A stretch of DNA of 32,000 bases from Candidatus Saccharimonadota bacterium (GCA_001761425.1 CP012986.1:330001-362000), one strand, 5' to 3'; numbered from the stretch's first letter, positions 3,599 through 32,000 are shown. Numbers and translations: made by a program. The notes: generated from the sequence alone by a model not told the origin.

Positions 3599-4708
3599 AT
3601 GGCAGATATTGATCCATGGGGCGACGTTGAGGCCGGAAAATATGAAGAAAAGATGGAGAAGTTCGGGATAGAATCTATCGAGGAAGTTGCTGATAGACTG
3701 CCTGATCACAGATTCATCCGCAGAGGAATAATCTTCGGCCACAGAGGCCTTGACGACTTCCTGGACGCGCGAGATGAGGGAGATGAGTTCGCGATGATGA
3801 CAGGGATCATGCCGTCAGGAGTCTTCCACTTCGGCCACAAATGCGTCGTGGATCAGATCAAGATGTACAGGGAGATGGGCGCACAGGTAACAATCGCAGC
3901 AGCCGATATAGAGGCCTACAACACGCGGGATATGAGCCTGGAAGAAGCACGTAAACTTGTGATCGAGGAATACCTGAAGAACTATGTCGCGCTTGGCATC
4001 AATCTGGAGGAAGTCGATTTTTACTTCCAGTCAAAAGCTGGCAATAATCATCTGGCCAGAGCCGCGACCTTTAGCCGCTACCTAACTCAAAATGAGATGG
4101 AGGCAACGTACGGATCAGCAGATCCAGGTAAAATGTCAGCTGCCCAGGTACAGTACGCAGATATTTTGAGACCCCAGTTCCCGGAGAACGCAGGGCCTAA
4201 ACCTACCGTCGTACCTGTTGGCGTTGACCAGGACCCGCATATCCGGTTGACACGTGAAGTGGCATCGAAATACAGGGAACAGAATTTCCAGAAACCAGCT
4301 TCCACATACAACAAGTTTATGAGAGGCCTTCAGGGCGGGAAAATGTCCTCAAGTAAGCCAAAGAGCTACATCGCCTTGACAGATGACATCGAAGATGCGA
4401 AGGAAAAGATAGATCAGGCGAAGACCGGCGGTCAGGACTCGCTGGAAGAACACAGGGAGAAAGGAGCGGATATCGAGGAAGACATGGTGTTCGAGCTTCT
4501 GGCCTTCCACCTAATTGAAGACGATGACGAGCTTCAGAGGATCCGGAAGGAATACGAGTCTGGTGAGATGCTTTCCGGAGAATTAAAGCAGATCGCGAAG
4601 GACAGATTAGAGGAGTTCCTCGAGGAGCATCAGAGGAAGCGCGAAGAAGCTTCTGAAGAGGTTGAACAGTATATTGAGGAGAACTTTGAGTTCGGCATCA
4701 GTCCGTAG
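3599..4708 (+). CDS. trpS: Tryptophan--tRNA ligase, archaeal/eukaryotic type
   Basis: N-terminal DIDPWG...KFGIE, HIGH-type motif PSGVFHFGH, VPVGVDQDPHIRLTREVA, and KMSSSKP (KMSKS). ATG 3599 is preferred. The track's GTG 3578 would overlap the upstream gene and is an alternative start. Confidence 0.85.
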   Translation: MADIDPWGDVEAGKYEEKMEKFGIESIEEVADRLPDHRFIRRGIIFGHRGLDDFLDARDEGDEFAMMTGIMPSGVFHFGHKCVVDQIKMYREMGAQVTIAAADIEAYNTRDMSLEEARKLVIEEYLKNYVALGINLEEVDFYFQSKAGNNHLARAATFSRYLTQNEMEATYGSADPGKMSAAQVQYADILRPQFPENAGPKPTVVPVGVDQDPHIRLTREVASKYREQNFQKPASTYNKFMRGLQGGKMSSSKPKSYIALTDDIEDAKEKIDQAKTGGQDSLEEHREKGADIEEDMVFELLAFHLIEDDDELQRIRKEYESGEMLSGELKQIAKDRLEEFLEEHQRKREEASEEVEQYIEENFEFGISP

Positions 4709-4710
4709 GG

Positions 4711-4733
4711 AGGCCTTAAACAGTTAAAGGCCT
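4711..4733. repeat. Inverted repeat built from two AGGCCT copies (AGGCCTTAAAC-A-GTTAAAGGCCT)
   Basis: 11-nt arms with one mismatch, starting 3 nt after the trpS stop (TAG 4706-4708) and 20-42 nt upstream of ATG 4753. Confidence 0.5.
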
Positions 4734-4752
4734 CTGTAACAATTTTTTCTTT

Positions 4753-5562
4753 ATGCTTCCGGAGCTGATTTACAGGGAGGAGCAGGAAGATAATTTCTTT
4801 TTGCTGTTTGCTATGGGCCTAGTCTCTTCTGTTCTAGGTTTTGGCCTTGCTCTACTGGTCTTTCCCTCCCATGTTTCTCTGCTTTCTGTGGTTTTCGCTG
4901 CTATTCCTTTAATGTATCCTCTTACGAGGACTTTTCTGGAGGACGAGAGGGCTGGAAGGCCTCATGTCGACGAAGTACTGATCTACGGGGCTCTCTTCGC
5001 TGGGGAGGTTCTTGGTTTTTTCCTCCTGTCTTTGACCGTATCTTCTCAGGATCTGAACCAGTTCTATCTGCAGATCAGCCATTTCTCTGAAGTTTTGGAG
5101 AAGATGGGAGTGACTATGGTTGGAGGAGCCGATATTTCCGCTTTAACACGTACAGGAGCTACTGGTGCGGCTACTGGAGGCCTTCAACTCCTGGGTATAT
5201 TCTTTAATAATCTTCTTGTTTTCCTGCTGATCTTTGCGGTTTCTGTGCTTGTCAGCTCTGCAGGTGCGTTCATTCTAGTATGGAACGCTTCTGTCCTGGG
5301 AGTATTCCTTGGTATACTGACAAGCAAGCTTCCAGGAATGAAGGTATTGACAGGAACGGAGTCTATACCGAGTCCTGTGGCTTATGTTCCTCATGCAACC
5401 TTTGAGATGACAGGTTTCATCATAGCAGGCATATCAGGATCTCTGGTCTCCGCTGCGATCTACAGACAACATTTTGACAGTGAGACATGGAAAGATTATG
5501 GTAAACTTCTAGGCCTCGGACTTGTATGTATTTTCGTCGGTGCTGTGGTTGAAGGCCTTTGA
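4753..5562 (+). CDS. Polytopic membrane protein, SpoIIM/DUF95-like
   Basis: 269 aa with about 6 hydrophobic spans. The HATFEMTGFIIAG segment resembles the conserved SpoIIM-family helix. A TTAAA-type box lies about 27 nt upstream. Confidence 0.45.
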   Translation: MLPELIYREEQEDNFFLLFAMGLVSSVLGFGLALLVFPSHVSLLSVVFAAIPLMYPLTRTFLEDERAGRPHVDEVLIYGALFAGEVLGFFLLSLTVSSQDLNQFYLQISHFSEVLEKMGVTMVGGADISALTRTGATGAATGGLQLLGIFFNNLLVFLLIFAVSVLVSSAGAFILVWNASVLGVFLGILTSKLPGMKVLTGTESIPSPVAYVPHATFEMTGFIIAGISGSLVSAAIYRQHFDSETWKDYGKLLGLGLVCIFVGAVVEGL

Positions 5563-5568
5563 GTGTTT

Positions 5569-6297
5569 CTAGAAAGCTGTCTGGTTTGGATACGTCACTA
5601 TACCGTTGTTTGTAATCTTCAGTGGGTGTATGTCTGACGAGTGGTCCGTACGGCGCATCTTGAAGACTTCCAGGGTTCTTGTTCTGGAGGATTCGGTTCT
5701 TTCATTTCCCAGGAGCAGGACTCCGTCAGCCACGAACTCTACGATCTGGTACTTTGATACCTGGCGCTCTCCGCCGGTGTAGGGGATCTCGGCCAGCAGG
5801 CATGCCGTACATTCCTGTTCTCTCAAAAACTGGGCGATCTCTGAAACCTTCTCTCTTCTGAGAGGTGAGGAATCGAAGACCATCGCAAACTTGGTGATAG
5901 AGTCAAGAACAACTCTGTCAGGTTCATACTGCTCGATCTGTCTCTTGAAAGCATCGATGAACCTGTCAGGCTCGAATACATCTCCTCCAGAACCTTCACG
6001 CATCAGGTTAAGCTCCTCGTGAAACTTCACGTTGCCAGCGACTCCCTCATCGTTCTCAAAGTCCATGTCAAAGTTCTTGCTTGTCTCAACGATGTTTCTG
6101 GCCGGCTCCTCCAGTGTAAAGTATATTCCTTTATCGTCATGATTCTTCGCGCCGTTATAGAGGAACTGGGTGGTCAAAGTAGTTTTACCTGCTCCAGACG
6201 TCCCGCTGACAACTATAGTATGTTCTTCAGGGATTCCACCGTTCAAAATCTGGTCGAGGCCTTGAACACCGGTCTTACATCTTGGGACTTCTGGCAT
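5569..6297 (-). CDS. KaiC/RecA-like single-domain ATPase (COG0467-type), canonical motifs
   Basis: GVQGLDQILNGGIPEEHTIVVSGTSGAGKTTLTTQFLYNGA (Walker A GxxGxGKT), RVVLDSITKF (Walker B), FKMRRTDHSSDIHPLKITNNGIVTY tail. Confidence 0.8.
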   Translation of the reverse strand: MPEVPRCKTGVQGLDQILNGGIPEEHTIVVSGTSGAGKTTLTTQFLYNGAKNHDDKGIYFTLEEPARNIVETSKNFDMDFENDEGVAGNVKFHEELNLMREGSGGDVFEPDRFIDAFKRQIEQYEPDRVVLDSITKFAMVFDSSPLRREKVSEIAQFLREQECTACLLAEIPYTGGERQVSKYQIVEFVADGVLLLGNERTESSRTRTLEVFKMRRTDHSSDIHPLKITNNGIVTYPNQTAF

Positions 6298-6405
6298 GTA
6301 TAACCCATGTCGTGTCTAAACTATTAAAGCTGGCCTCAAGACCAGGGAGGTTAGATATTATAAACAGCTGAATATCATTAATTCACATAGAGGTAAATCA
6401 AAAAC

Positions 6406-7098
6406 ATGGCAGGCGACAGAGTAAGCACAGGAGTTGAAGGCCTTGACGGGGCCATGGAAGGAGGTTTTCCCGCAAACTCTACAGTAATTCTAATGGGTTC
6501 TGACGGCACAGGAAAGGAATCGCTTGTCAACAAGTTCGTGTATCAAGGCCTTGAGGAAGGAGAGGAATCGATGTATGTCACTCTTGACGGTTCTCCTGAT
6601 GATGTAAAGGATGATGCAGATTACTACGGATGGGATTTCACAGACCACGACGACAGAATCGTATTCGTAGACGGCTACTCCTGGCAGGCAGGGGGAAGCG
6701 ATGAACAGTTCGCACTCGACGGTCTCTCGGACCTTAACCAGATGAACATGACATTTACAGACGCTTTGAACGCGCTTGGAAATGAGTCCAAACGTGTGGC
6801 CATCCATTCGGCTTCCACACTACTTCTCTATACAGATCCGAAATCCGCTGTAAAGTTCCTTCAGGTTGTCGGTGCGAAGAGTTCAAGCTCTGGTGGTTGC
6901 CTGGTAATCACTCTGGAAGAAGGGATGCACGATGAGAAGACAGTTAACACAATAAAACACGTTGCAGATGGAGTGATCAAGACCAAGCTGGATGGAGACG
7001 ACAAAAAACTTTCAATACAGAGGATGGACAAGACAGACACCAGCAGAGACTGGAAAGACTTCGAAGTAGATGATTCAGGAGACATAACAGTTTCTTAG
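6406..7098 (+). CDS. KaiC/RecA-like domain protein with degenerate Walker A and B (probable pseudo-ATPase)
   Basis: GVEGLDGAMEGGFPANSTVILMGSDGTGKESLVNKFVYQGL has Glu in place of the Walker A Ser/Thr (GKE). RVAIHSAST has His where the Walker B Asp is expected. A KaiC-like tail is present (SIQRMDKTDTSRDWKDFEVDDSGDITV). Confidence 0.7.
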   Translation: MAGDRVSTGVEGLDGAMEGGFPANSTVILMGSDGTGKESLVNKFVYQGLEEGEESMYVTLDGSPDDVKDDADYYGWDFTDHDDRIVFVDGYSWQAGGSDEQFALDGLSDLNQMNMTFTDALNALGNESKRVAIHSASTLLLYTDPKSAVKFLQVVGAKSSSSGGCLVITLEEGMHDEKTVNTIKHVADGVIKTKLDGDDKKLSIQRMDKTDTSRDWKDFEVDDSGDITVS

Positions 7099-7203
7099 GA
7101 AAAGAAAGAAGTAAAGAATCTTCTGGACAGTTTAAGCAGCTTTTTCAGGCCTTTTACAGGCGTTACTAAGGTTAAAAATTCTTTCTGTTTGTTTTGAAGT
7201 AGA

Positions 7204-7211
7204 TTTATAAA
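7204..7211 (+). promoter_or_regulatory. TATA-like box (TTTATAAA) for the KaiC-like/GTPase fusion gene
   Basis: Centre lies about 27 nt upstream of ATG 7234 with no purine-rich SD between, consistent with a leaderless archaeal mRNA. Confidence 0.45.
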
Positions 7212-7233
7212 CCAGAGAAACTTAGTTGTGATT

Positions 7234-8397
7234 ATGTCTAAGGTTAAGCTGCCACTTGAGAGACTTAATGAGGCCCTGGATGGAGGAGTAGAGGAAGGTT
7301 CCAACGTTCTTATACTAGCAGATCTGGCTGTAGACAAGTCAAAGTTCGCTTCTGCACTTGTTAACTACAGGCTAGATGAAGATGACAACCTGGTCTACTT
7401 CGTTAACAACAGGATGCCACAGTATATCAATGAGAGGATAGATAGTGAAAGAGCTGACGGTGAGACAGCTGTAATCGATGGATTCTCTTCAACACTGAAT
7501 AAAGAGTCAGAGGAAAGATTCAAGATCGATAAGGATCTCAAGGCAGACAGATCAGAATACCTCCAAGAATCCAAGGAAACAACAAAAGAGGCCTTGGAGG
7601 AGCTGGAGGACTGGGGAACAACCTACGTAATGGATTCTCTGGACACGTTCGCAGGTCAGTGGGAAGAAGTAGAGGACTTCGTAGACGAAATAGGTCCTGT
7701 AGCAGAAGATACTCTGGCAGTAAACTACTACTTCCTTCCAAACCTCGGATTCGAGGAAGACGACGATATAGAAAGACTGAAAGAAATATTCGACTACGTA
7801 ATACATCTCAAAGGCCTTGAAAGGTCGGGAATCGTACTAAAGTATATCGATATCAGAAAACCGGATATTGAGACAAAAGTTCCTTTCGACATCACACCGG
7901 AAGGCCTTGTCATGTATGTGCCTAAGATGCTTGTAACCGGGCCTTACGATGCAGGAAAATCTACCACTGTACAGAATATGTCTGAGGAGGCAGTATCTGT
8001 GGACAGACTTGGAACCACTGTCTCTCTGGATCATGGACAGGTCGAGAGAAATGGCCTGAAAGCTGAACTGTTCGGTACACCCGGCCAGAAACGTTTCGAC
8101 TGGGCGCTTGATTTCCTCGGCAGAAGCATCTTCGGATGTTTCATTGTAGTGGATTCCAGGGATCCTAACTATGAGAGAGTCCGGAAGCTGAAAGAGGATC
8201 TGGAGGCTGAGGAGTTACCGTTCATCATACTTGCCAACTTCCAGAACAAGGATGATGCCCTGTCTCCTGATGAAATCCAGGACGAGCTGAGTATCAAAAC
8301 AGTCGGAATCGATGCCAAACACGATGAAGGCCTTGATCAGGCACTCCAGTCGCTTATGGAGGAAATCCTGAGCAGGCATTCGTGGTATTACACATAG
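7234..8397 (+). CDS. Fusion protein: degenerate KaiC-like domain plus MglA/CvnD-type (COG2229-like) small GTPase
   Basis: N-terminal ~230 aa have a KaiC-like layout (LNEALDGGVEEGSNVLILADLAVDKSKF, TYVMDSLDTF, LKYIDIRKPD...FDITPEGLVMY) but no GK[ST]. The C-terminal ~155 aa (from ATG 7927) form a GTPase with G1 GPYDAGKST, G3 FGTPGQ (Thr instead of Asp, as in MglA-type GTPases) and G4 NKDD. ATG 7234 preferred over GTG 7228. Confidence 0.7.
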   Translation: MSKVKLPLERLNEALDGGVEEGSNVLILADLAVDKSKFASALVNYRLDEDDNLVYFVNNRMPQYINERIDSERADGETAVIDGFSSTLNKESEERFKIDKDLKADRSEYLQESKETTKEALEELEDWGTTYVMDSLDTFAGQWEEVEDFVDEIGPVAEDTLAVNYYFLPNLGFEEDDDIERLKEIFDYVIHLKGLERSGIVLKYIDIRKPDIETKVPFDITPEGLVMYVPKMLVTGPYDAGKSTTVQNMSEEAVSVDRLGTTVSLDHGQVERNGLKAELFGTPGQKRFDWALDFLGRSIFGCFIVVDSRDPNYERVRKLKEDLEAEELPFIILANFQNKDDALSPDEIQDELSIKTVGIDAKHDEGLDQALQSLMEEILSRHSWYYT

Positions 8398-8451
8398 GTG
8401 GGAAAAATGAAACTCTTTAAAAAATATCAAGACCTAATACAGGTATAGAAC

Positions 8452-8817
8452 ATGTCAAGTAAAGAGGAAAAGTTAAATGAGCCGTTGGATGATCTGGACA
8501 GTGTCCAGGGGATTAAAGGAGCTGCTGTTGTCAGAAGAGATGGTTTACTGATCGCATCAAATCTTGGCCAGGACATTGATGATGATCAGGTTGGTGCGAT
8601 GACAGCATCCACGGTAGGATCAGGAGAAACCGCCAGCGAAGCATTAAGCATGGGAGATGTTGATCAGGTTACTGTAGAATCAGACAACGGCAAACTCATT
8701 GCTACAGGTGCAGGAGACGAAGGAATACTCGCAATACTAACAGAAAGCGACGTCAACATGGGCCTTATCAAGGTTGAAATGAGCGACGCAGTGGACAAAG
8801 TCAAAAAAGTCCTGTAA
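8452..8817 (+). CDS. Roadblock/LC7 (MglB-like) domain protein
   Basis: 121 aa. GIKGAAVVRRDGLLIASNL...GAMTASTVGSGE...VTVESDNGKLIATGAGDEGILAILTE fits the Roadblock/LC7 pattern. Lies directly downstream of the GTPase gene. Confidence 0.8.
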   Translation: MSSKEEKLNEPLDDLDSVQGIKGAAVVRRDGLLIASNLGQDIDDDQVGAMTASTVGSGETASEALSMGDVDQVTVESDNGKLIATGAGDEGILAILTESDVNMGLIKVEMSDAVDKVKKVL

Positions 8818-8847
8818 AGACTATCTTCTCACTTTGTTATCAATTAG

Positions 8848-8855
8848 TTATAAAA
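8848..8855 (+). promoter_or_regulatory. TATA-like box (TTATAAAA) for the divergent PaaK-like gene
   Basis: About 28 nt upstream of ATG 8879. Supports the shorter start. Confidence 0.4.
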
Positions 8856-8878
8856 TTATTTTTATCCAGGTTTTTAAC

Positions 8879-10129
8879 ATGTCTGTATTCTCTCGGCCGT
8901 ATGAATCTCTAGAAGGCCTGAGAAATGAGCTTGAAGATAGAAGTCTTCTAGACTACATGGTGGAAAATACACGGGGAGATGTAGAGGTTCCGTACAAAAA
9001 TAATAATTTGGATGAGGAGGCCTATGTTCAGGCGGTAATGGATATTCATTTTGATGAGGATTACGGTACTCCGTACTGGCTAGAGCACGCTAACAGGCTT
9101 GATTTCGATCCCAGAGAAGAGATCGATTCTTTCCAGGATCTTTCAAAGCTCGGCGTTGCAGATGAAGAGGCGCTCGTAGAGAGGCCTGTAGAGGATTTCA
9201 TGCCCCGATTATTCTCTAGAAACTTAGAAGAAGCGGACAATTACAGTGAACTTGTCCCAGATTCATCTGCTTATGATATGTCTAAGTCATCAGGTTCAAC
9301 GGGGAAGAAAAAGGTGATGCCCTGGAGAAAACATCTTTCAGATGAAGTATCGGACTGGTACAATTTCAACTTTGAATTAAGAGATATAGATGGAGGCAAC
9401 TGGCTGATCGCAGGCCCTCCAGGCCTTTACGAGAAACAGATTAGATCTGCCGCTGAGAAGAGAGGAGGATTCCCTTTATTCAGTGGGATAGAGACAAGAA
9501 GGCTTAAACCTCAGCTTAAACAGCTTGGCAGGCTAAGTGAGGAGCCTTATAGCTTCCTCAAAGACTCTGTAACGGAGCCAGGTAATATCAAAGAGGCTCT
9601 GGAAGGCCTTGTAAGGATGAAATATACTTTACGGGCGATGGAGGAGGATCTACAGTCTGAGGAGGTGGGTGTTATCGCGAGCGCGCCGGAGCCTGTTGAA
9701 CGAGTGCACGGGATGCTGGAGTCGGATGATGCCCGTTCTACGCCTGAAGATGTCAACGCATTGCTGATGAGTGGTATGGGGACGACACAGGAGACTGTAG
9801 ATAGATTGGAACAGAAATACCCTAATGCGGAAGCAATCCCGATGTATGCCACATCGTTTACGGGAGCAAACTTTGACAACCCCAAAAGTGATGACTTTGA
9901 ATATCATTCAATACATCCGTTCATCAGTTTTGATGTAGTAGAATCTGAAGGAACAGGGCTTGGAGATACTGTGGACTATGGGGAAAGAGGACAGGTCGTG
10001 CTCAACCATCTCTCTTCAGGGTTCCTCTGGCCTAACCAGACAGAAAGAGAGACAGCAGAGAGAAGGTTTCCAGCAGAACTATTTGGGGGAGGCGACGGGA
10101 TAGCTGATATAAGGCCTCTGTCTGACTAG
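8879..10129 (+). CDS. Divergent adenylate-forming enzyme, PaaK/coenzyme F390 synthetase-like
   Basis: N-terminal region parallels PaaK (YGTPYWLEHANRLDFDPREEIDSFQDLSKLGVADEEAL). P-loop-like SKSSGSTGKKKVMPW. MYATSFTG occupies the position of YGxTE. ATG 8879 preferred over the track's TTG 8834 because TTATAAAA lies 28 nt upstream. Confidence 0.5.
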   Translation: MSVFSRPYESLEGLRNELEDRSLLDYMVENTRGDVEVPYKNNNLDEEAYVQAVMDIHFDEDYGTPYWLEHANRLDFDPREEIDSFQDLSKLGVADEEALVERPVEDFMPRLFSRNLEEADNYSELVPDSSAYDMSKSSGSTGKKKVMPWRKHLSDEVSDWYNFNFELRDIDGGNWLIAGPPGLYEKQIRSAAEKRGGFPLFSGIETRRLKPQLKQLGRLSEEPYSFLKDSVTEPGNIKEALEGLVRMKYTLRAMEEDLQSEEVGVIASAPEPVERVHGMLESDDARSTPEDVNALLMSGMGTTQETVDRLEQKYPNAEAIPMYATSFTGANFDNPKSDDFEYHSIHPFISFDVVESEGTGLGDTVDYGERGQVVLNHLSSGFLWPNQTERETAERRFPAELFGGGDGIADIRPLSD

Positions 10130-12229: not shown

Positions 12230-12772
12230 ATGGCAAACGAGTTCTTCGGAAGACTGATGGACACCGGCGAATTCAGGTTCAATGAAAATGGGATTCTATT
12301 CTACTTCGGAGCACCAACAATGCTCTTCAACATTAATACTATGGTTTCGCTTCAGAAAGACCTAGAAGAAAAAAATGTAGCGGAGGAATCCCTCAAAAAA
12401 GTCGGAGGAAACCAATCAAGAAGAGCCCTGAAACGATACGAGGACAGATATAACTTCGATGAACTCAGCAGAAACGAGATAATGAAGTTCATAGACGATC
12501 TCACAGATGTAATCGCGCTCGGCGAATTCACAATAAGCAAGATGGACCAGAAAGAGGATATAGTATACGCCATAGAGAACAGGACCAATCCAATCGCCAG
12601 AGTCTACAGAAAAGAATATGGGGAAGCAGATTCACCAAGAGATTTCTTCCTCCAAGGCCTGATAGAGAAAGGCCTTGACGCACTTGAAAGTAAAGATCTT
12701 GAAGTAGAAGAAAAAGAATGCATGGCCAAGGGAGACGACAGATGCCTCTTTGTAGCAAGACCTAAAGACTGA
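12230..12772 (+). CDS. V4R (4-vinyl reductase-type) small-molecule-binding domain protein
   Basis: 180 aa. The C-terminal FFLQGLIEKGLDALESKDLEVEEKECMAKGDDRCLFVARPKD carries the paired-Cys V4R signature (C-x-A-x-GD-x-x-C-x-F). Starts 10 nt after the PaaK-like gene. Confidence 0.6.
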   Translation: MANEFFGRLMDTGEFRFNENGILFYFGAPTMLFNINTMVSLQKDLEEKNVAEESLKKVGGNQSRRALKRYEDRYNFDELSRNEIMKFIDDLTDVIALGEFTISKMDQKEDIVYAIENRTNPIARVYRKEYGEADSPRDFFLQGLIEKGLDALESKDLEVEEKECMAKGDDRCLFVARPKD

Positions 12773-13445
12773 GGCCTTTCTCAGGCTCCTTTACCTTAAG
12801 ACCGTTTTCATCTATCTCGACAGGATATACATCGTGCTCAAAGTTCGTCCTCCTCATCTTCTGGACTGTAAGCTTTCTGCCCATGTCTCCGCCAAAGCCG
12901 AGGCCTTTCATGATAAATACTCCGTCCACCACGTACTCTTCGACTCCATAACGAGTCAGGTTATCTTCATCAGGCTTCTCAGTAGTGAACAAAGTAGTAA
13001 CTTCTTCGCCCTTCATCTGCTTGATGATCTCGTAAAGCTCCTTTCTCACCTCTCCAGGAGCATTAGAATCCAGCCCCATACCGATCATGGAAACAGGGTC
13101 TATAACCACTCTGTCCGGGTTATGCTCGTTAATATATCCCCGCACATTGCTATCAAAGGTGAAGTCCTCTGTGAACGGATTGATGTACTCTATGGAAAAT
13201 CTTTCCTCATCCCTAAAACTCCAGCCGAACTCGTCTGCATCGCCAAGAATATCCTCCTCGTCCTCTTCCAAAGTAATGAAAAGACATCTCTCCCCTTTCT
13301 GAAGACCTTCCCACAGGAACTGACTCGAAAAAATAGTTTTACCCATTCCAGCACTACCGGAAATCAGAATAGTAGAGCCTTCAGGCACTCCTCCTTCAAT
13401 CAGTTCATCAAGGCCCTCCACGCCTGTAGAAATTCTCTCAGTCAT
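12762..13445 (-). CDS. KaiC/RecA-like single-domain ATPase, canonical motifs
   Basis: GVEGLDELIEGGVPEGSTILISGSAGMGKTIFSSQFLWEGL (Walker A), RVVIDPVSMIG (Walker B), VQKMRRTNFEHDVYPVEIDENGLKV. ATG 13445 preferred over TTG 13454. The 3' end overlaps the V4R gene's 3' end by 11 nt. Confidence 0.8.
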   Translation of the reverse strand: MTERISTGVEGLDELIEGGVPEGSTILISGSAGMGKTIFSSQFLWEGLQKGERCLFITLEEDEEDILGDADEFGWSFRDEERFSIEYINPFTEDFTFDSNVRGYINEHNPDRVVIDPVSMIGMGLDSNAPGEVRKELYEIIKQMKGEEVTTLFTTEKPDEDNLTRYGVEEYVVDGVFIMKGLGFGGDMGRKLTVQKMRRTNFEHDVYPVEIDENGLKVKEPEKGLSL

Positions 13446-13470
13446 AAGAAACAATTCCCTTTCCCTGAAT

Positions 13471-20219: not shown

Positions 20220-20347
20220 GGGTCCGTGGTCTAGTTGGTTATGACGTCGCCCTTACAACCGCATCGTGTGCAAAGCATATCTGCTTGAATCACACGCGGA
20301 GCGAGTGAGTAAGGCGAAGATCCCCAGTTCGAATCTGGGCGGACCCA
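20220..20347 (+). tRNA. tRNA-Val (anticodon UAC) with a 54-nt intron at the canonical 37/38 position; CCA not encoded
   Basis: Hand-folded cloverleaf. Acceptor GGGTCCG (20220-20226) pairs with CGGACCC (20340-20346), discriminator A 20347. D arm GTCT/AGTTGGTTA/TGAC. Anticodon stem TCGCC (20247-20251) pairs with GGCGA (20313-20317), loop CTTACA|A with TAC at 20254-20256. T arm CCCAG-TTCGAAT-CTGGG. Intron spans 20258-20311. Confidence 0.8.
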
Positions 20348-26285: not shown

Positions 26286-28886
26286 CTACCTGGATTCAAG
26301 CTGGTATTTTAACTCTCCGTCCTTCTTTACCTCCACCTCTATTTTCCCTTCTTTAGCCAGCCATCCCAGGGCCTGATTCATAACCTCTTCGGAATCAACT
26401 TTCTCATCGGTATAATCTTTTAGCTTGGAGGCAGTAGCTTTCCCGTGCTTGTTCAATGTCTCATAAACTTCCCCGGCACTCCTGCCGATATCATCCACAG
26501 AAAGGGACTCGATCTGGTCCTGAACCTGATCCTGAACATCGTCGATATCCACTTCAACTTCATTCCTAGCTGATCCTTCATCCACGCTATGATCAGGTGC
26601 TCCTCTTTTTTCCTCGGCGTCCGCAACCTTCAGGATGGTCTCAAGAGCGACGTCAGGGGAAACGGAAATCGCATCGATACCCTGACCGACGAGAAACTCA
26701 GCATATCCGTCGTGAGTCGAAGGCGCATCCCCACAGATACCGACGTGTCGGTTCTTACTGTGAGCTTTCTCGATCAGAGTCCTCACAGATTCTTTAACAG
26801 CCGGATCTCTCTCATCAAATACTTCGGAAAGTTTGTCCGAGTTCCTGTCCACACCGAGAGTCAACTGGGTCAGATCGTTTGTACCAATGCTGAAACCGTC
26901 GAAGACCTCAGCAAAGTCCTCTGCACGCAGAATATTCGCAGGAATCTCCGCCATCACAAAGACATCGATATCGCCTTCATCCAGGCCGTACTCCTTCATC
27001 TTGGCACGGACCTTATTACCTTCGTCTACCGTACGGCAGAAAGGAACCATGATAGTGATATTATCAAGGTCCAGTTCATCTATCGCCTGACGCAAGGCCT
27101 TGCACTCCAGTTCGAAGGCCTTTGAGAACTCCTCATCGTAGTAACGCGAAGCTCCCCTGAAACCAAGCATGGGGTTCGCCTCATCTGGCTCGTAGTCCTC
27201 TCCGCCCTTCAGGTCAGCGTACTCATCCGACTTGAAATCGCTCAGTCGGACCACCACCTGGTCAGGGTAAAAAGCTGCTCCAATCTTGCCGATCCCACTC
27301 CTCAAGGCCTCTACGTATTCGTCTTCACGGTCTTCCTCAATCAGCTTCAATGGGTGTTCTCCGACATGGCTGGAGATTATGAACTCTTCTCTTGCGAGGC
27401 CTACTCCTTCGACAGGTAGCTGTGCGACGTGGAAAACCTCGCTTGGTTCTCCGATGTTTACCTGTACATCGGTCTCCGTATCTGGTATTTTGTCTAAGTG
27501 GTGTTCCTCGACATTGTAATCAAGCTCTCCGTTCCACACTTTTCCTGTGCTTGATGAACAGTCTACCGTCACCTTTTGACCGTCCTTCAGCTTTGAGGTC
27601 GCATTCTCCGTTCCGATCACTGCGGGTACGCCTAGTTCTCTTGATACGATGGCTGCGTGACTGGTTCTTCCGCCTTTGTTTGTGATTATTGCTCCTGCCT
27701 GTTTCATGATCGGTTCCCAGTCAGGATCGGTCATATCTGTCACCAAGACTTCTCCTTCCTCGAACTGGTCAATCTCCTTGGGCGAATCCAGCACATGTGC
27801 TGTTCCATTCCCGATCTTGGAGCCGATGGCTTCTCCTTCAAGAACTACTTCGGATTCTTCCTCCAGTTTGTGGTCTTCGATCACGTTTTCGTCTTTCTCT
27901 GCCTGTACTGTTTCAGGCCTTGCCTGGACGATGTAAAGTTCTTTTGTCTGTCCGTCCAGAACCCATTCAATATCCATGGGCTTTCCGTAATGGTCTTCTA
28001 TCCTGAGAGCGTACTTCGCTAGCTCCTGGACCTGATTATCTGTTATACAGTATTTCTCTCTTTCCGCCTTATCTACGTTGACTTCCTTGTTGTCATTTTC
28101 CTTGTCTTCGTCGTCTCTAACCAGTTTTACTTCTTTGTCTCCGAGTTTTCTCTCGATGATTCCGAGATTCTCCTTGAAGACCGTAAATTCATCTGGGTTA
28201 ACCTCTCCCAGTACAACGTACTCTCCAAGTCCATAGCTTCCGTTGATAGTTACTACGTTGTCGAACCCGGAGTCCGGATCCAGTGTGAACATCACTCCGG
28301 CAGCACCGATGTCAGAACGCCCCATCTTCTGGACCACAGCAGAAAGTTTCACGTCAAAATGGCTAAAGCCTTTGTCCTCCCTGTAGGAGATAGCTCTGTT
28401 CGTGAATAGAGATGCATAACAGTCTTTCACCCGTTTGATCAAATCCTGTTTCCCCTGAACGTTGAGATAGGTCTCCTGCTGGCCAGCGAAAGAAGCTCCA
28501 GGAAGATCCTCCGCTGTAGCCGATGAACGCACGGCAACCTCAGGGTTATCTACTCCAAGCTTTTCCTCAAGCTCCTCGTAGGCCTCCACAAAGCTTTCTC
28601 TAAGCTCTTCCGGCATCTCAGCCTCCTTGATATGAGACCGGATCTGCTCTCCTCTTCTCTGCAGATCACTGACATCATCCGTATCAAGGCCGTCCAGAAG
28701 TTTCTCGATCTTGTCTCTCAGGTCTGTATCATGTATAAACTTATCGTAGGCATCAGCTGTCGTAGCATAACCTGGTAGGACCGGCACATCCACCTCATTA
28801 CTGAGCTCTCCAAGATTAGCGCTTTTTCCTCCCACTTTTCCAGTATCGTCCGCGTTTATATTTTCAAACCAGAAAACATTATCCAT
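26286..28886 (-). CDS. ppsA: Phosphoenolpyruvate synthase (pyruvate, water dikinase) with C-terminal DUF2582-like winged-helix extension
   Basis: GGKSANLGEL (ATP-grasp N-domain), GGRTSHAAIVSRELGVPAV (phospho-His swivel domain), GTNDLTQLTLGVDR and HVGICGD (PEP-utilizer TIM barrel). A ~105-aa tail follows. ATG 28886 preferred over GTG 28904. Confidence 0.9.
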   Translation of the reverse strand: MDNVFWFENINADDTGKVGGKSANLGELSNEVDVPVLPGYATTADAYDKFIHDTDLRDKIEKLLDGLDTDDVSDLQRRGEQIRSHIKEAEMPEELRESFVEAYEELEEKLGVDNPEVAVRSSATAEDLPGASFAGQQETYLNVQGKQDLIKRVKDCYASLFTNRAISYREDKGFSHFDVKLSAVVQKMGRSDIGAAGVMFTLDPDSGFDNVVTINGSYGLGEYVVLGEVNPDEFTVFKENLGIIERKLGDKEVKLVRDDEDKENDNKEVNVDKAEREKYCITDNQVQELAKYALRIEDHYGKPMDIEWVLDGQTKELYIVQARPETVQAEKDENVIEDHKLEEESEVVLEGEAIGSKIGNGTAHVLDSPKEIDQFEEGEVLVTDMTDPDWEPIMKQAGAIITNKGGRTSHAAIVSRELGVPAVIGTENATSKLKDGQKVTVDCSSSTGKVWNGELDYNVEEHHLDKIPDTETDVQVNIGEPSEVFHVAQLPVEGVGLAREEFIISSHVGEHPLKLIEEDREDEYVEALRSGIGKIGAAFYPDQVVVRLSDFKSDEYADLKGGEDYEPDEANPMLGFRGASRYYDEEFSKAFELECKALRQAIDELDLDNITIMVPFCRTVDEGNKVRAKMKEYGLDEGDIDVFVMAEIPANILRAEDFAEVFDGFSIGTNDLTQLTLGVDRNSDKLSEVFDERDPAVKESVRTLIEKAHSKNRHVGICGDAPSTHDGYAEFLVGQGIDAISVSPDVALETILKVADAEEKRGAPDHSVDEGSARNEVEVDIDDVQDQVQDQIESLSVDDIGRSAGEVYETLNKHGKATASKLKDYTDEKVDSEEVMNQALGWLAKEGKIEVEVKKDGELKYQLESR

Positions 28887-28910
28887 AATAAAGAAAAATT
28901 TCACAGGGCT

Positions 28911-28972
28911 CCATATAAAAAGGCCGTTATCATCGAACGGTGACGAGGCCTTCCAGACCTGTCACATTTTAA
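28911..28972. promoter_or_regulatory. Divergent promoter region (ppsA and pilin-like cluster)
   Basis: ATTTTAA (28966-28972) lies 26 nt upstream of GTG 28995. TTTTATATGG (complement of 28911-28920) lies about 30 nt upstream of ATG 28886. Confidence 0.4.
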
Positions 28973-28994: not shown

Positions 28995-30287
28995 GTGACC
29001 CGTGAAGGCTACTCGTTTAAGGGACAGTCCTCCGTCGAATTTCTGCTTGTGGTAGGTATAGCTTTGAGTATCTCCACTCCCTTCCTATTGGCGGCCCAAC
29101 AATCAGTTATCGATTTGGAACAGACTTCAAGATCAGTCTCACTGGAGCAATCGCTTGATAAACTTGAACAAGCGGTAAAAACAGTGAGTGTTTCAGGAGA
29201 GCCGGCTAGAAGAACCTTCAACATGGATATACCGGATAACGTCTTGAAGGCACAGGTTGTACAGGGAAGAGGCGTTGTCTACACTATCAGGAACGGAGGA
29301 GGAGTATTCAACACTTCAAGGCTTTTCGAAACCAATATCTCGCTGCCCGAAGGCCTTCCGGAAGATCCTGGAAGGTCTAAAGTCTCAGTGTATGCATGGA
29401 ATGGCCAGGTGAATATCTCCAGACCAGGATTCAATTCAACTGAAAGTTCAACAGAGAGGCCTCTAAACCTAATCTTCTATTCAGGGGATAACGGAAACTT
29501 GAACTACTATAATATTGATAATGATTCCATAGAACAGGTCACAGATGAGTACGATGTGGAGGCTTTGGGGCCTCAAAGCCCTAATCTGGACGGAGATGAC
29601 CGGTATGAGATCGTATTCGGGGCAGACGGCAAGCTGTATATAACTGATTATACTGGGGAAGTACGGAACCTTGCAGAGAACAACAAGTATCAAGAGACGA
29701 AGTATGGTATCGGAGAAGACTCCTCAGATGCTATCTATTATCCAGGAGATCCCAACAACGGTTACGATGTATACAGGGTTTCAGTGGACTCAAGGGCTTC
29801 CCTTGTATCGAGGATAGGAGACGGTGTCAGCGCTCTCTCCGATGTCGACGATTTTGACGGTGATGGCAATGAGGAAATTATCTTTGTTGGAGGCTCACAA
29901 GTAATTCAGTACCTTAATGAAGACGGTTCTGTTGTCTCTACGGGAAGACAAGTAGGCTCAAATAACGGACTGGGTCTGGGAGCATCATATGACTTTAACG
30001 GTAACGGAAGGTCGAGGGTGGCGATAGTCGATAACAGCAATAATATCGCTTTGGTGAACAATCAGGGAGAGAAGGAGTTACTAACGGAGGATGGGGAAGC
30101 CAGCAAGACCAGTATCTCAGTTATAGATCTGGACGATGACGGAGACATGGAAATAGCTTACGTTCCAAAATCAGGTGATAGAGGAATTTACTATGTCGAT
30201 GACATCTTAGGTCAAAATCAGATAGCGGAGCTAAGTTCGGGGGCCAAACCGGCGACGGAAGTCGGGCTTACAGGTAGAATCCGGTAA
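28995..30287 (+). CDS. Class III signal-peptide (archaeal type IV pilin-like) protein with FG-GAP/VCBS-like beta-propeller repeats
   Basis: N-terminus MTREGYSFKGQSSVEFLLVVGIALSI (KGQ-S-x-EF plus hydrophobic helix). Repeats LDGDDRYEIVFGADGKLY, DFDGDGNEEIIFVGG, DFNGNGRSRVAIVD, DLDDDGDMEIAYV. The GTG start has ATTTTAA 26 nt upstream. Confidence 0.65.
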   Translation: MTREGYSFKGQSSVEFLLVVGIALSISTPFLLAAQQSVIDLEQTSRSVSLEQSLDKLEQAVKTVSVSGEPARRTFNMDIPDNVLKAQVVQGRGVVYTIRNGGGVFNTSRLFETNISLPEGLPEDPGRSKVSVYAWNGQVNISRPGFNSTESSTERPLNLIFYSGDNGNLNYYNIDNDSIEQVTDEYDVEALGPQSPNLDGDDRYEIVFGADGKLYITDYTGEVRNLAENNKYQETKYGIGEDSSDAIYYPGDPNNGYDVYRVSVDSRASLVSRIGDGVSALSDVDDFDGDGNEEIIFVGGSQVIQYLNEDGSVVSTGRQVGSNNGLGLGASYDFNGNGRSRVAIVDNSNNIALVNNQGEKELLTEDGEASKTSISVIDLDDDGDMEIAYVPKSGDRGIYYVDDILGQNQIAELSSGAKPATEVGLTGRIR

Positions 30288-30294
30288 AAGATTT

Positions 30295-30714
30295 ATGAGA
30301 AGGGCAAATAGTTCAGTAAAAGGTCAGACATCTATAGAATTCTTCCTGCTTTTTGGAATGGCTATGGCTATTATGACAGTCCTCTTCGCCGCTATACAAA
30401 CCAAAGAATCAGATGTGATGAGTCTTCAGAACCAGAAAACAGCAGCACAAATTGGTGAAAAAGTCGGTAAGCATGTCGAAAAAGCCTTGGCGGAGGGAAA
30501 AGGCTATTCACGGAAATTCCGCGTCCCGGACCGGATAGCCGGCAGCAAGTACAATCTGACTGTAACTAACAAGACCGTAGTTGTAAGGTGGGGCGGCGGC
30601 ATCGCTACAGCAGATACTATCTATTCAGGAGAGAAACTGAAACTTTCAACAAGGAGTACAAACCTGTACAAAGTGATACATGACGAAAAAGGTGTCAAAT
30701 TCGTTGAGAGATAA
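30295..30714 (+). CDS. Small class III signal-peptide pilin-like protein
   Basis: 139 aa. MRRANSSVKGQTSIEFFLLFGMAMAIMTVLFAAI matches the class III signal-peptide pattern. Starts 7 nt after the upstream gene. Confidence 0.6.
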   Translation: MRRANSSVKGQTSIEFFLLFGMAMAIMTVLFAAIQTKESDVMSLQNQKTAAQIGEKVGKHVEKALAEGKGYSRKFRVPDRIAGSKYNLTVTNKTVVVRWGGGIATADTIYSGEKLKLSTRSTNLYKVIHDEKGVKFVER

Positions 30715-32000
30715 AGGCCAGGCATTCCTGACTGATTTTGCTCTGAGCATGGCGATATTCGGGATAATCATCTCAGCGTTTTTCGTTCCCTGGAACATGA
30801 TGATCGAGACCGAAAACAGGTTCTCCCATTCCGACGATATGAAGGCTAAGGCAGAGAGAACGGTATCAATCATGGTCACCTCGCCAGGATATCCGGAAGA
30901 CTGGGAACAAAATCTCTCCGAGCCGGCTATCCTAGGATTATCTACGCAGAAAGAAAATGTAATCTCTATGGAAAAACTGGAGGCCTTTTCAAACCTCAGC
31001 AACGCACAAAAAACCTCCGTACTGAACTCAAGAGGATTTTCTCTCAACTTCAGATATCCTGAAAACTCGGAGGTCATAAAGTACAGTGACTCAGAAGTCC
31101 TGGGCACAGAATTTCTGGGAAAAGAGCCTATCGCATATATCGCACGAGGAGGCTCAACCTTCTCCTCGCTGGAGATGCTGGAAGAGTTAAACTCGTCCAC
31201 GAAGGAATGGTATTTCTACTTCCCTTCGGAGGAGAACCAGGATGATATAGACTCCCTGACAGCGGAGAAAACATATACTAACGAGGGATCTGGGCCCAAA
31301 ATGTTCCAGAGAATGATCAGTGACGCTGCCAACAGAGGATTCCAGAGGTTCAAGACAGGAAGTAAAATAAAGGCCTCTCTCTCGATCTCCGAAGTCTTTG
31401 AGGTTGACAACGATGGAAACAAGGGGATATTTTTCAGGGATCAGGACGGAAAACTGAAACTTCACAACCTTGAAAACAGCATGACAGAAGAGATAGATCC
31501 TGTAAACGAAGTTACCAGGATGGGAGCCGTCGAGAACTTCACCTCAGAGGAAGAAGAACTAGCTTTTATCAACGGAGACAGCAAATTAAATTTCTACAGT
31601 TTAGAAGACAACGAGGTCATAGAAACATCTATCGGGGCTGTAGACATCGGTGATTCTACCACTATTTCCGGTGACAAGGCCTTATTCTTCATAGATGACG
31701 ATAATTCTCTTTCATACTATATCAGAGGGAGAGGAAGTTTTGAGACATCTTTCAGCGGATCCAGGGTAGGAGGTGCTGGGGACATCGATGGAGACGACGT
31801 CTCCGAGATCGCGTTCCGGGATGAGGATGACAAACTCGCATTCTATGATCCCGAGACTGAGACGAAGCAGCCGACAGATCAAGGCGTTAAAGATGTAGGA
31901 TGGATCCATGAAAGATCTGTCGCAGTAGTCTCAGGCAACAACGAAAATCTGGGAGTCTGGAACTCTACGGACTCCTCATTTGAAAACTATCGGACAAAGG
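30692..32000 (+). CDS. Class III signal-peptide-like protein with propeller-type repeats (partial, runs off window)
   Basis: Not in the supplied ORF track because there is no stop in the window. By my reading the frame is open for ~1.3 kb from GTG 30692 (or TTG 30704) to the edge. N-terminus (M)SNSLRDKGQAFLTDFALSMAIFGIIISAFF. Repeats VDNDGNKGIFFRDQDGKLKL, LAFINGDSKLNFY, ALFFIDDDNSLSYY, DIDGDDVSEIAFRDEDDKLAFY. Confidence 0.55.
   Translation, partial: MSNSLRDKGQAFLTDFALSMAIFGIIISAFFVPWNMMIETENRFSHSDDMKAKAERTVSIMVTSPGYPEDWEQNLSEPAILGLSTQKENVISMEKLEAFSNLSNAQKTSVLNSRGFSLNFRYPENSEVIKYSDSEVLGTEFLGKEPIAYIARGGSTFSSLEMLEELNSSTKEWYFYFPSEENQDDIDSLTAEKTYTNEGSGPKMFQRMISDAANRGFQRFKTGSKIKASLSISEVFEVDNDGNKGIFFRDQDGKLKLHNLENSMTEEIDPVNEVTRMGAVENFTSEEEELAFINGDSKLNFYSLEDNEVIETSIGAVDIGDSTTISGDKALFFIDDDNSLSYYIRGRGSFETSFSGSRVGGAGDIDGDDVSEIAFRDEDDKLAFYDPETETKQPTDQGVKDVGWIHERSVAVVSGNNENLGVWNSTDSSFENYRTK

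Follow-up and report, generated by a model that had tools for sequence, protein, structure and literature searches.

Pilin-like proteins with predicted beta-propellers encoded by a candidate minor-pilin operon of a nanohaloarchaeon

DPANN archaea, including the Nanohaloarchaeota, need physical contact with a host, and the molecules by which the host is recognised are largely unknown. The question raised here is what is encoded at the end of a 32,000-nucleotide (nt) stretch of DNA (GCA_001761425.1, CP012986.1:330001-362000; hereafter the window), where three tandem open reading frames (ORFs) begin in the manner of archaeal type IV pilins. The evidence indicates that ORF1, ORF2 and ORF3 are probably the first genes of a five-gene operon for minor-pilin-like subunits of a nanohaloarchaeal type IV pilus-like filament. 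The three genes were located in the window as follows, with protein lengths given in amino acids (aa).

28995-30287, forward strand: ORF1, 430 aa, GTG start; a two-module, pilin-like protein with a predicted pilin module and a predicted C-terminal six-bladed beta-propeller
30295-30714, forward strand: ORF2, 139 aa; a small pilin-like protein of the DUF7266 type
30680 to beyond 32000, forward strand: ORF3, 930 aa in full, of which the window has the first 440 aa

ORF3 ran 1,472 nt beyond the window end, and the complete gene could be placed at positions 10386-13178 of L001, taken from a JGI metagenome contig of 1,125,078 bp (3300010222, Ga0136257_100001) that encodes an identical ORF2 and supplied the sequence outside the window. 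The genes were tightly packed, with a gap of 7 nt between ORF1 and ORF2 and an overlap of 35 nt between ORF2 and ORF3. The N-terminus was MTREGYSFKG-QSSVEFLLVVGIAL in ORF1, MRRANSSVKG-QTSIEFFLLFGMAM in ORF2 and ..SLRDKG-QAFLTDFALSMAIFGII in ORF3, following a common plan of a short basic leader, then K-G-Q, then a hydrophobic helix. An earlier sequence-only reading of the window had described three tightly packed genes with such N-termini, the middle one encoding a pilin-sized protein of 139 aa, and ORF calling and translation bore this out for all three. The acidic repeat strings which it quoted could also be found, two in ORF1 (DFDGDGNEEIIFVG, aa 286-299, and DLDDDGDMEIAYV, aa 378-390) and one in ORF3 (DIDGDDVSEIAFRDEDDKLAFY, aa 368-389).

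The surroundings were examined over 52 kb (contig positions 319,091-369,676), which comprised the window, 10 kb upstream and 8.7 kb downstream. On the parent contig the operon order was ORF1-ORF2-ORF3-ORF4 (174 aa)-ORF5 (408 aa), with ORF4 and ORF5 each overlapping the preceding gene by approximately 10 nt. Downstream of it the following genes were found.

L001 14996-17448 (3.3-5.7 kb past the window end), reverse strand: ORF6, a putative major pilin, and two TadC-like genes, converging on the operon
L001 17507-19178, same strand as the TadC pair and directly upstream of it: genes for eIF6, L31e, a double-stranded DNA-binding protein and S19e

ORF4 (MEMRKG-FYFSMDAVVALVIM) and ORF5 (KNKG-MVYTTFAIVATNLLLLL) also had pilin-like N-termini, and the 157-aa ORF6 had a canonical pilin N-terminus, KRKG-QSAIEYLMTYGWMLLVVAIVGG. 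The two TadC-like genes matched T2SSF, the TadC/PilC-type platform family, with 63.5 and 67.4 bits. The order from ORF1 to ORF6 and the TadC pair was kept in three related genomes. Thus, what had been taken for a three-gene cluster was part of a larger unit, consisting of a five-gene minor-pilin operon, a putative major pilin and two TadC genes. The sequence-only reading was right that ATPase, platform and peptidase genes were absent from the window. Its suggestion to look downstream for PilB/PilC-like genes was fruitful in part, as two T2SSF genes and a pilin gene were present from approximately 3.3 kb past the window, but the 8.7 kb downstream held no ATPase gene.

The main comparison bearing on the nature of this unit was with Candidatus Nanohalobium constans LC1Nh, a cultured nanohaloarchaeon with a complete genome (CP040089.1, positions 909,042-929,500; L011). 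Its locus consisted of genes for a 360-aa protein, a T2SSE ATPase (501 aa), two T2SSF proteins and a pilin (152 aa), facing genes for proteins of 286, 150, 166, 126 and 144 aa. BLAST comparison matched ORF1 to the 144-aa protein (E=3e-16), ORF2 to the 126-aa (E=3e-9), ORF3 to the 166-aa (E=3e-10), ORF4 to the 150-aa (E=6e-8) and ORF5 to the 286-aa protein (E=3e-11), while the 152-aa pilin was the counterpart of ORF6 (E=1e-35); between the TadC pair and the two T2SSF genes identity was 50-52%. Because these orthologues are one-to-one and in the same order, ORF1-3 can be assigned to a conserved set of five accessory pilin genes in the nanohaloarchaeal pilus-like system. The two loci differ in that the five accessory genes of N. 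constans are small, lack propellers and have the ATPase gene adjacent, whereas here ORF1 has 430 aa, ORF3 has 930 aa and the ATPase is unlinked. Filaments of N. constans have been seen by electron microscopy (bioRxiv 10.1101/794461).

The putative major pilin was highly conserved: its first approximately 30 mature residues (QSAIEYLMTYGWMLLVVAIVGGAIFATVQ) were near-identical between genomes in which ORF3 was only about 44% identical, and its gene was duplicated in some relatives. The family comprised 324 homologues; among the matches listed, every organism-named one was nanohaloarchaeal and one was labelled 'UPF0333 family'. A sequence search of the Protein Data Bank (PDB) with ORF6 gave only spurious low-complexity matches to cyanovirin repeats and, thus, no solved relative. 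The relatives of ORF3 and ORF6 were found in Candidatus Nanohaloarchaea metagenome-assembled genomes (MAGs), Ca. Nanohalobium and Ca. Haloredivivus, and the window itself held archaeal housekeeping genes with acidic products and approximately 46% G+C. These observations support assignment of the organism to the nanohaloarchaea, in agreement with the earlier suggestion of a possible nano-sized archaeon.

The N-terminal motif was assessed with a FlaFind-style pattern, [KRDE][GA][ALIFQMVED][ILMVTAS]x3, which had to lie in the first 45 aa and to precede a hydrophobic stretch. Among the 69 window ORFs of at least 80 aa, the pattern was matched by two, ORF1 (KGQSSV) and ORF2 (KGQTSI), which exceeds chance. 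ORF3 (KGQAFL) deviated at one position, with F at +3. However, [KR][GA]-QAF-x-[TS]-DF was kept throughout the orthologues of the ORF3 family (LRDKG/QAFLTDF in ORF3 itself), and a basic plan of [KR][GAS]-Q-x(2-5)-[DE]-[FL...] with a hydrophobic stretch was kept in 88 of 117 distant homologues of its N-terminal domain, most of the remaining 29 looking like gene calls begun at an internal Met. In the ORF1 orthologue alignment K9, Q11, S12, S13, E15 and F16 were invariant. All six locus families (ORF1-6) kept [KR][GA], then Q/F/M and a hydrophobic stretch, in four genomes. Motif and genomic context together support placing ORF1-3 in the archaeal type IV pilin-like class; the identity proposed earlier gained in this way both from the conservation of the N-terminal motif within each family and from the one-to-one match to the small pilin-like genes of N. 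constans.

The make-up of the locus resembles that of a known group of systems, the euryarchaeal clade 2 type IV pili that have a pilin set of their own, exemplified by the PilB4-type locus of Haloferax volcanii (Makarova et al. 2016, PMC4858521). Operons of that clade combine several FlaFind-type pilins with two tadC-like genes, paired tadC genes being typical of euryarchaeal systems (PMC4858521). ORF2 scored against the haloarchaeal family DUF7266 (Pfam PF23928) with 26.9 bits (E=4.4e-6), slightly short of the 27.6-bit cut-off, and its syntenic orthologue in the related locus L009 reached 37.8 bits; the ORF3 N-terminal family matched DUF7287. A literature search on DUF7266 found nothing, and NCBIfam gave no match for ORF1, ORF2 or ORF3. 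The ORF3 N-terminal domain was common to hundreds of proteins of approximately 165 aa starting with [KR][GAS]Q..D[FL], 10 of 60 members of this family matching DUF7287 (best E=2.7e-7). Unlike the present locus, the clade 2 systems in that paper include no propeller-bearing pilins, and the adhesins predicted there are separate large DUF2341 proteins (PMC4858521).

The anatomy of ORF1 was then delimited as follows.

28995..29024, forward strand: predicted class III leader, MTREGYSFKG (aa 1-10), with a predicted cut at G10/Q11
29025..29420, forward strand: predicted mature pilin module (aa 11-142), in which a long N-terminal helix leads into a small beta domain
29451..30284, forward strand: predicted beta-propeller module (aa 153-430), approximately 24 strands in six blades

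The boundary was marked by a standalone 158-aa orthologue in relatives, which covered only aa 9-142 of ORF1 (48% identity, E=2e-40) and ended where the module ends. Beyond the pilin module, ORF1 was matched by only four proteins among 5.8 billion and by one syntenic orthologue, and full-length orthologues had 436-449 aa. An AlphaFold 2 (AF2) model built from a five-sequence alignment had a mean predicted local distance difference test score (pLDDT) of 62.7. In this model the pilin module had two helices (aa 13-44, aa 50-63) and then strands over aa 71-142. Approximately 24 strands made up the propeller (aa 159-430), where pLDDT was 70-90 between aa 250 and 420. Foldseek comparison of the propeller with the PDB gave 200 matches at E<=1e-3, the top 50 all being propellers; the best were the six-bladed YWTD propellers of the LDL receptor (1ijq, E=3e-8) and LRP6, followed by Keap1 Kelch and TolB, and PQQ-type and lectin propellers were also present. 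The YWTD superposition covered approximately 285 aligned columns with a root-mean-square deviation of 4.3. Pfam FG-GAP_3 (cut-off 26.9 bits) was matched with 31.8 bits by full-length ORF1 and 35.1 bits by the isolated propeller module. Two D-x-D-x-D-G-x-x-E loops were present, at aa 286-294 and aa 378-386, and their acidic residues D290 and E294 in the first and D378/D380/D382/E386 in the second were invariant among orthologues. From these sequence and model data, ORF1 is a predicted pilin module to which a six-bladed, FG-GAP-like propeller has been added C-terminally.

Upstream of ORF1, inspection of the sequence showed an A/T-rich ATTTTAA at window positions 28966-28972 (forward strand), centred approximately 26 nt before the GTG; the spacing would fit an archaeal TATA box for a leaderless ORF1 transcript. 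A scan for sigma-70 promoters and intrinsic terminators, which is not applicable to archaea, gave sites no commoner than in shuffled sequence.

ORF3 proved to be built differently. The parts lying within the window were the following.

30680..31345, forward strand: leader, hydrophobic helix and N-terminal pilin-like domain to approximately aa 120, then a middle domain to approximately aa 222 (EWYFYFPS..)
31346..32000, forward strand: in-window part of the predicted propeller insert, with five blades and the beginning of a sixth, out of 12 repeats

Full-length homologues of ORF3 were rare, with only nine (922-944 aa, 40-45% identical) among 5.8 billion proteins, and a profile of the family recovered 1,201 proteins from 1.84 billion representatives. 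In the hmmsearch alignments, proteins of approximately 165 aa covered profile positions 1-120 and 892-935, those of approximately 385 aa positions 1-215 and 745-935, P0014 (649 aa) positions 4-441 and 709-935, and the ORF3 family itself (approximately 930 aa) all 935 positions. As the 165-aa and 385-aa members are without it, the segment at profile positions 215-745 is interpreted as an insertion within a nested architecture. The insert consisted of 12 mutually alignable repeats of approximately 43 aa each (aa 223-742, approximately 520 aa in total) with the consensus G-x-x-x-D-h-D-G-D-x-x-x-E-h-h-h-x-D-x-x-x-x-L-x-h-Y-D. An AF2 model made on P0001, which is 98% identical to ORF3, had pLDDT of approximately 90 over aa 212-735, with approximately 48 strands. 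In the Foldseek comparison the insert was closest to tandem double propellers, led by the ectodomains of the Bacteroides sensors BT4673 and BT4663 (3ott, 4a2l; E 1e-15 to 1e-14), and further matches included Utp21, Gemin5 and Aip1. On this modelling the 12-repeat insert is probably a tandem propeller, and ORF3 is, from the profile alignments and the model, a pilin-like scaffold with an inserted 12-repeat propeller of approximately 520 aa. Four strict matches to D-x-D-x-D-G-x-x-[DE] and related loops were present, and the invariant loop residues included D368/D370/D372/E376 and D540/D542/G545/E548. The acidic D-x-D-x-D-G loops of both propellers probably bind calcium.

Two further conserved elements of ORF3 lay outside the propeller: a strictly conserved EWYFY[FY]PS in the middle domain (aa 176-183), and a strictly conserved C-x-A-C (aa 849-852) followed by G-x-G-x-x-YYL in the C-terminal domain.

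The sequence-only reading had described FG-GAP repeats of the integrin type as following the N-termini of both proteins. Its expectation that the repeats fold as propellers was supported by AF2 and Foldseek for ORF1 and for the ORF3 insert. The position it gave them suits ORF1, where the propeller is a C-terminal addition, but not ORF3, where it is an insertion within a conserved scaffold. The likeness to FG-GAP/VCBS propellers of the integrin alpha type was also partial. Both have D-x-D-x-D-G-x-x-E loops before a hydrophobic strand, and ORF1 passes FG-GAP_3; however, ORF1 was modelled with six blades rather than the seven of integrin alpha and is nearest in structure to YWTD and Kelch propellers, and the ORF3 insert remained below the Pfam thresholds (FG-GAP_3 13.7 bits, FG-GAP 9.8 bits), with 12 repeats of approximately 43 aa resembling tandem propellers. 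Pfam searches with full-length ORF3, ORF4 and ORF5 remained empty up to an E-value of 1.

Comparison of related loci revealed that the five gene positions were filled differently from locus to locus.

L001 (window organism): ORF1 430 aa with predicted propeller; ORF2 139 aa; ORF3 930 aa with 12 repeats; ORF4 174 aa; ORF5 408 aa
L003: ORF1 441 aa with predicted propeller; ORF2 139 aa; ORF3 934 aa; ORF4 630 aa; ORF5 424 aa
L004 and L006: ORF1 158 and 123 aa as called (start cut short in L006); ORF2 135 aa; ORF3 938 and 941 aa; ORF4 630 aa; ORF5 411 aa
L009 (GCA_034190535.1, locus positions 3859-8558): ORF1 135 aa; ORF2 135 aa; ORF3 385 aa; ORF4 578 aa with vWA; ORF5 426 aa
L009, extra protein before ORF5: 1022 aa, with Reelin-subrepeat-B, H-type lectin and vWA matches
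L011 (N. constans): ORF1 144 aa; ORF2 126 aa; ORF3 166 aa; ORF4 150 aa; ORF5 286 aa

The modules at equivalent positions elsewhere were vWA, lectin/Reelin-type, a 450-aa domain without family assignment, or none, and in P0022 an ORF1-type propeller was carried on an ORF3-type scaffold. Many acidic archaeal proteins whose N-termini look like plain Sec signals contained the same repeat type, and the propeller is thus interpreted as a general surface module recruited onto pilin scaffolds in this lineage. Movement of the extra module from ORF4 to ORF1 was ruled out, as there was no similarity between ORF1 and the 630-aa ORF4 of relatives. It is tentatively proposed, as a possibility only, that in Nanohaloarchaeota a conserved five-gene chassis of the tip complex carries swappable binding modules (a six-bladed propeller, a 12-repeat tandem propeller, vWA or a lectin) that set the haloarchaeal host or surface glycan to which each nanohaloarchaeal lineage attaches, and that swapping and nested insertion record an ongoing host-range arms race of DPANN episymbionts.

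Such an arrangement has counterparts in bacteria, where modular pilins sit at pilus tips and work as adhesins (PMC8179133). Examples are Streptococcus sanguinis PilB (pilin and vWA) and PilC (pilin and lectin). The C-terminal graft of ORF1 resembles PilB, and the ORF3 insertion before the last scaffold strands resembles GspK of type II secretion, in which a domain is inserted in the pilin beta-sheet (PMC8179133). Tip display would be expected sterically in both cases, and a vWA module is present in the related archaeal locus L009. Unlike the bacterial proteins, those described here have a predicted class III signal of the archaeal type (K-G/Q) and no N-methylation motif IPR012902, and the module is a beta-propeller, in one case a nested insertion; there is no detectable sequence homology, so that the relation is one of analogy and not of membership. 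PilY1/PilC tip adhesins of bacterial type IVa pili likewise combine a calcium-binding propeller at the tip with four or five priming minor pilins (PMC7541494, PMC8179133). PilY1 is not a pilin, however, and has its own propeller family, IPR008707, whereas here the propeller lies within a pilin-like polypeptide. Pfam gave no match to the PilY1-type propeller family in ORF1 or ORF3 at E up to 10, and the relation is a functional analogy only.

A mechanism can be proposed on this basis and from what is established for type IV filaments (PMC4858521, PMC8179133, PMC7541494). A prepilin peptidase encoded elsewhere would cut the leaders after G/A, and the N-terminal helices of ORF1-5 would assemble into a priming or tip complex. 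Beneath this complex ORF6, as the major pilin, would polymerise on the platform formed by the adjacent TadC pair, with assembly powered by an ATPase encoded elsewhere. Too bulky for the filament body, the propellers would sit at the tip of the filament and bind ligands there, probably in a calcium-dependent manner. Their target may be the surface of a host haloarchaeon, or a polysaccharide or glycan, at which the structural matches to glycan sensors hint. We infer signal cleavage, filament incorporation and host binding of ORF1-3 in this scheme.

Several observations weigh against a type IV pilus-like filament with these proteins as its minor pilins. Neither a T2SSE ATPase gene nor a prepilin peptidase gene was found in the 52 kb, and what preceded the TadC pair, here and in L003, L004 and L006, were genes for eIF6 and ribosomal proteins and not an ATPase gene. 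As these genes occupy the slot of the N. constans T2SSE gene and its 360-aa neighbour, the pilus ATPase is considered to be unlinked in this clade. ATPase/TadC modules can serve pilin sets encoded elsewhere, such in-trans action being documented for Halobacteria (PMC4858521). The pilin fold is only a low-confidence model, both for the ORF1 pilin module (pLDDT mostly <60) and for the N- and C-terminal scaffold flanks of P0001 (pLDDT <50). With regard to the signal, the +3 residue of ORF3 departs from the strict pattern as described above, the +1 residue is F in ORF4 and M in ORF5 with aromatics just after, and the hydrophobic stretch of ORF1 is followed by a conserved [LVI]-[AS]-A-Q, in principle a signal peptidase I site. 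The search with the PF04021 (Class_IIIsignal) profile, recommended by the sequence-only reading, did not succeed for any of the three, the scores being 13.9 bits for ORF1 and 13.7 bits for ORF2 with no match for ORF3, against a cut-off of 23.7 bits. This model has 27 positions only, and syntenic relatives scored 22.4 and 19.4 bits; the shortfall weakens formal Pfam membership, not the motif evidence.

A first alternative is a different use of the same proteins, in which class III proteins form a short membrane-embedded pseudopilus or surface raft, similar to the Sulfolobus bindosome or to type II secretion pseudopili, that would keep the propellers at the cell surface for capture of nutrients or glycans or at a fixed contact site. 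Five of the six pilin-like genes are indeed accessory rather than filament-forming, this clade has no ATPase gene linked to the locus, and the best structural matches of the ORF3 insert include tandem propellers (3ott, 4a2l) with which hybrid two-component sensors of Bacteroides sense glycans. Nevertheless, a small, highly conserved and sometimes duplicated pilin adjoins the TadC pair, and N. constans, an organism with filaments visible by electron microscopy (bioRxiv 10.1101/794461), has the orthologous locus in complete form, ATPase included. A short pseudopilus or raft is judged unlikely.

A second alternative concerns the propellers rather than the filament, namely that they are enzymes or sensors (polysaccharide-processing or quinoprotein-like) and not adhesins. 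Beta-propellers host many activities, PQQ-type and lectin propellers occur among the Foldseek matches, and nanohaloarchaea in culture are members of consortia that degrade polysaccharides (bioRxiv 10.1101/794461). Against this, searches of Pfam and NCBIfam up to an E-value of 10 detected no catalytic family, conservation falls on structural residues or on the D-x-D-x-D-G loops, and classic binding modules (vWA, H-type lectin) are found at equivalent positions in related loci, which makes an enzymatic or sensory role quite improbable. It is very unlikely that the N-termini are ordinary Sec signals or uncleaved anchors of generic secreted or anchored propeller proteins lying near pilus genes by accident. 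In favour of this reading, PF04021 stays under its cut-off, ORF1 has an A-x-A-like [LV][AS]A/Q after the hydrophobic stretch, and the same repeats are found in many acidic proteins of archaea that begin in a plain Sec-like manner. Against it, a basic residue, G/A and Q stand immediately before the hydrophobic stretch, and this motif recurs in all the families and in their distant homologues; QxSxEF/Y, acidic at +5, agrees with the central part of the class III model; each gene has a single orthologue in the pilin set of a complete pilus locus; and the orthologues without a propeller are pilin-sized (126-166 aa).

The reading of ORF1-3 as minor-pilin-like subunits is consistent with what has been reported for the lineage, in which conserved type IV pilus-like loci with a proposed role in host interaction have been described for Nanohaloarchaeota (PMC6642349, PMC11291902) and conserved type IV pilus loci for DPANN (Hamm et al. 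2024, PMC11291902). According to one genome study, no pilins could be annotated in new nanohaloarchaeal MAGs of the order Nucleotidisoterales (PMC9563170).

Several features of the neighbourhood and of the rest of the window may also be recorded. The translation-related genes upstream of the TadC and pilin genes may share a transcript with them. Divergent to the pilin operon and beside it lay a phosphoenolpyruvate synthase gene (window 26286-28904, reverse strand) with a C-terminal winged-helix DUF2582 domain of approximately 60 aa, and this fusion was kept at the same place in all related loci examined. Rfam detected a tRNA at window positions 20220-20347 (forward strand; 55.2 bits), which is taken to be an intron-containing archaeal tRNA because it spans 128 nt against a 71-position model; ARAGORN in default mode, unlike Rfam, reported no tRNA in the window. 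Three KaiC-like ATPase genes were present, a pair at 5569-7098 and a third at 12762-13454. The pair was followed (region 5569-10129) by genes for a fusion of DUF7504 and a small Ras/Arf-like GTPase (389 aa), a Roadblock/LC7 protein (121 aa) and an uncharacterised 431-aa protein. The DUF7504-GTPase and Roadblock genes resemble, in domain content, an MglA/MglB-type GTPase-Roadblock module. These KaiC and GTPase genes were 19 kb from the pilin operon; kaiC pairs have been noted in some nanohaloarchaeal pilus-type clusters (PMC9563170).

Type IV pilus loci of Nanohaloarchaeota have thus already been described, and the accessory five-gene set, the propeller graft and the nested insertion were not found described in the searchable literature. 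For a lineage that depends on physical host contact, the locus offers concrete candidates for the molecules concerned: a widespread putative major pilin, a fixed five-gene set, and lineage-restricted versions of two of its genes with predicted propellers. The modular-pilin principle, hitherto documented in bacteria, would in this way extend to archaea, and with it the nested insertion of a module within a pilin-like scaffold.

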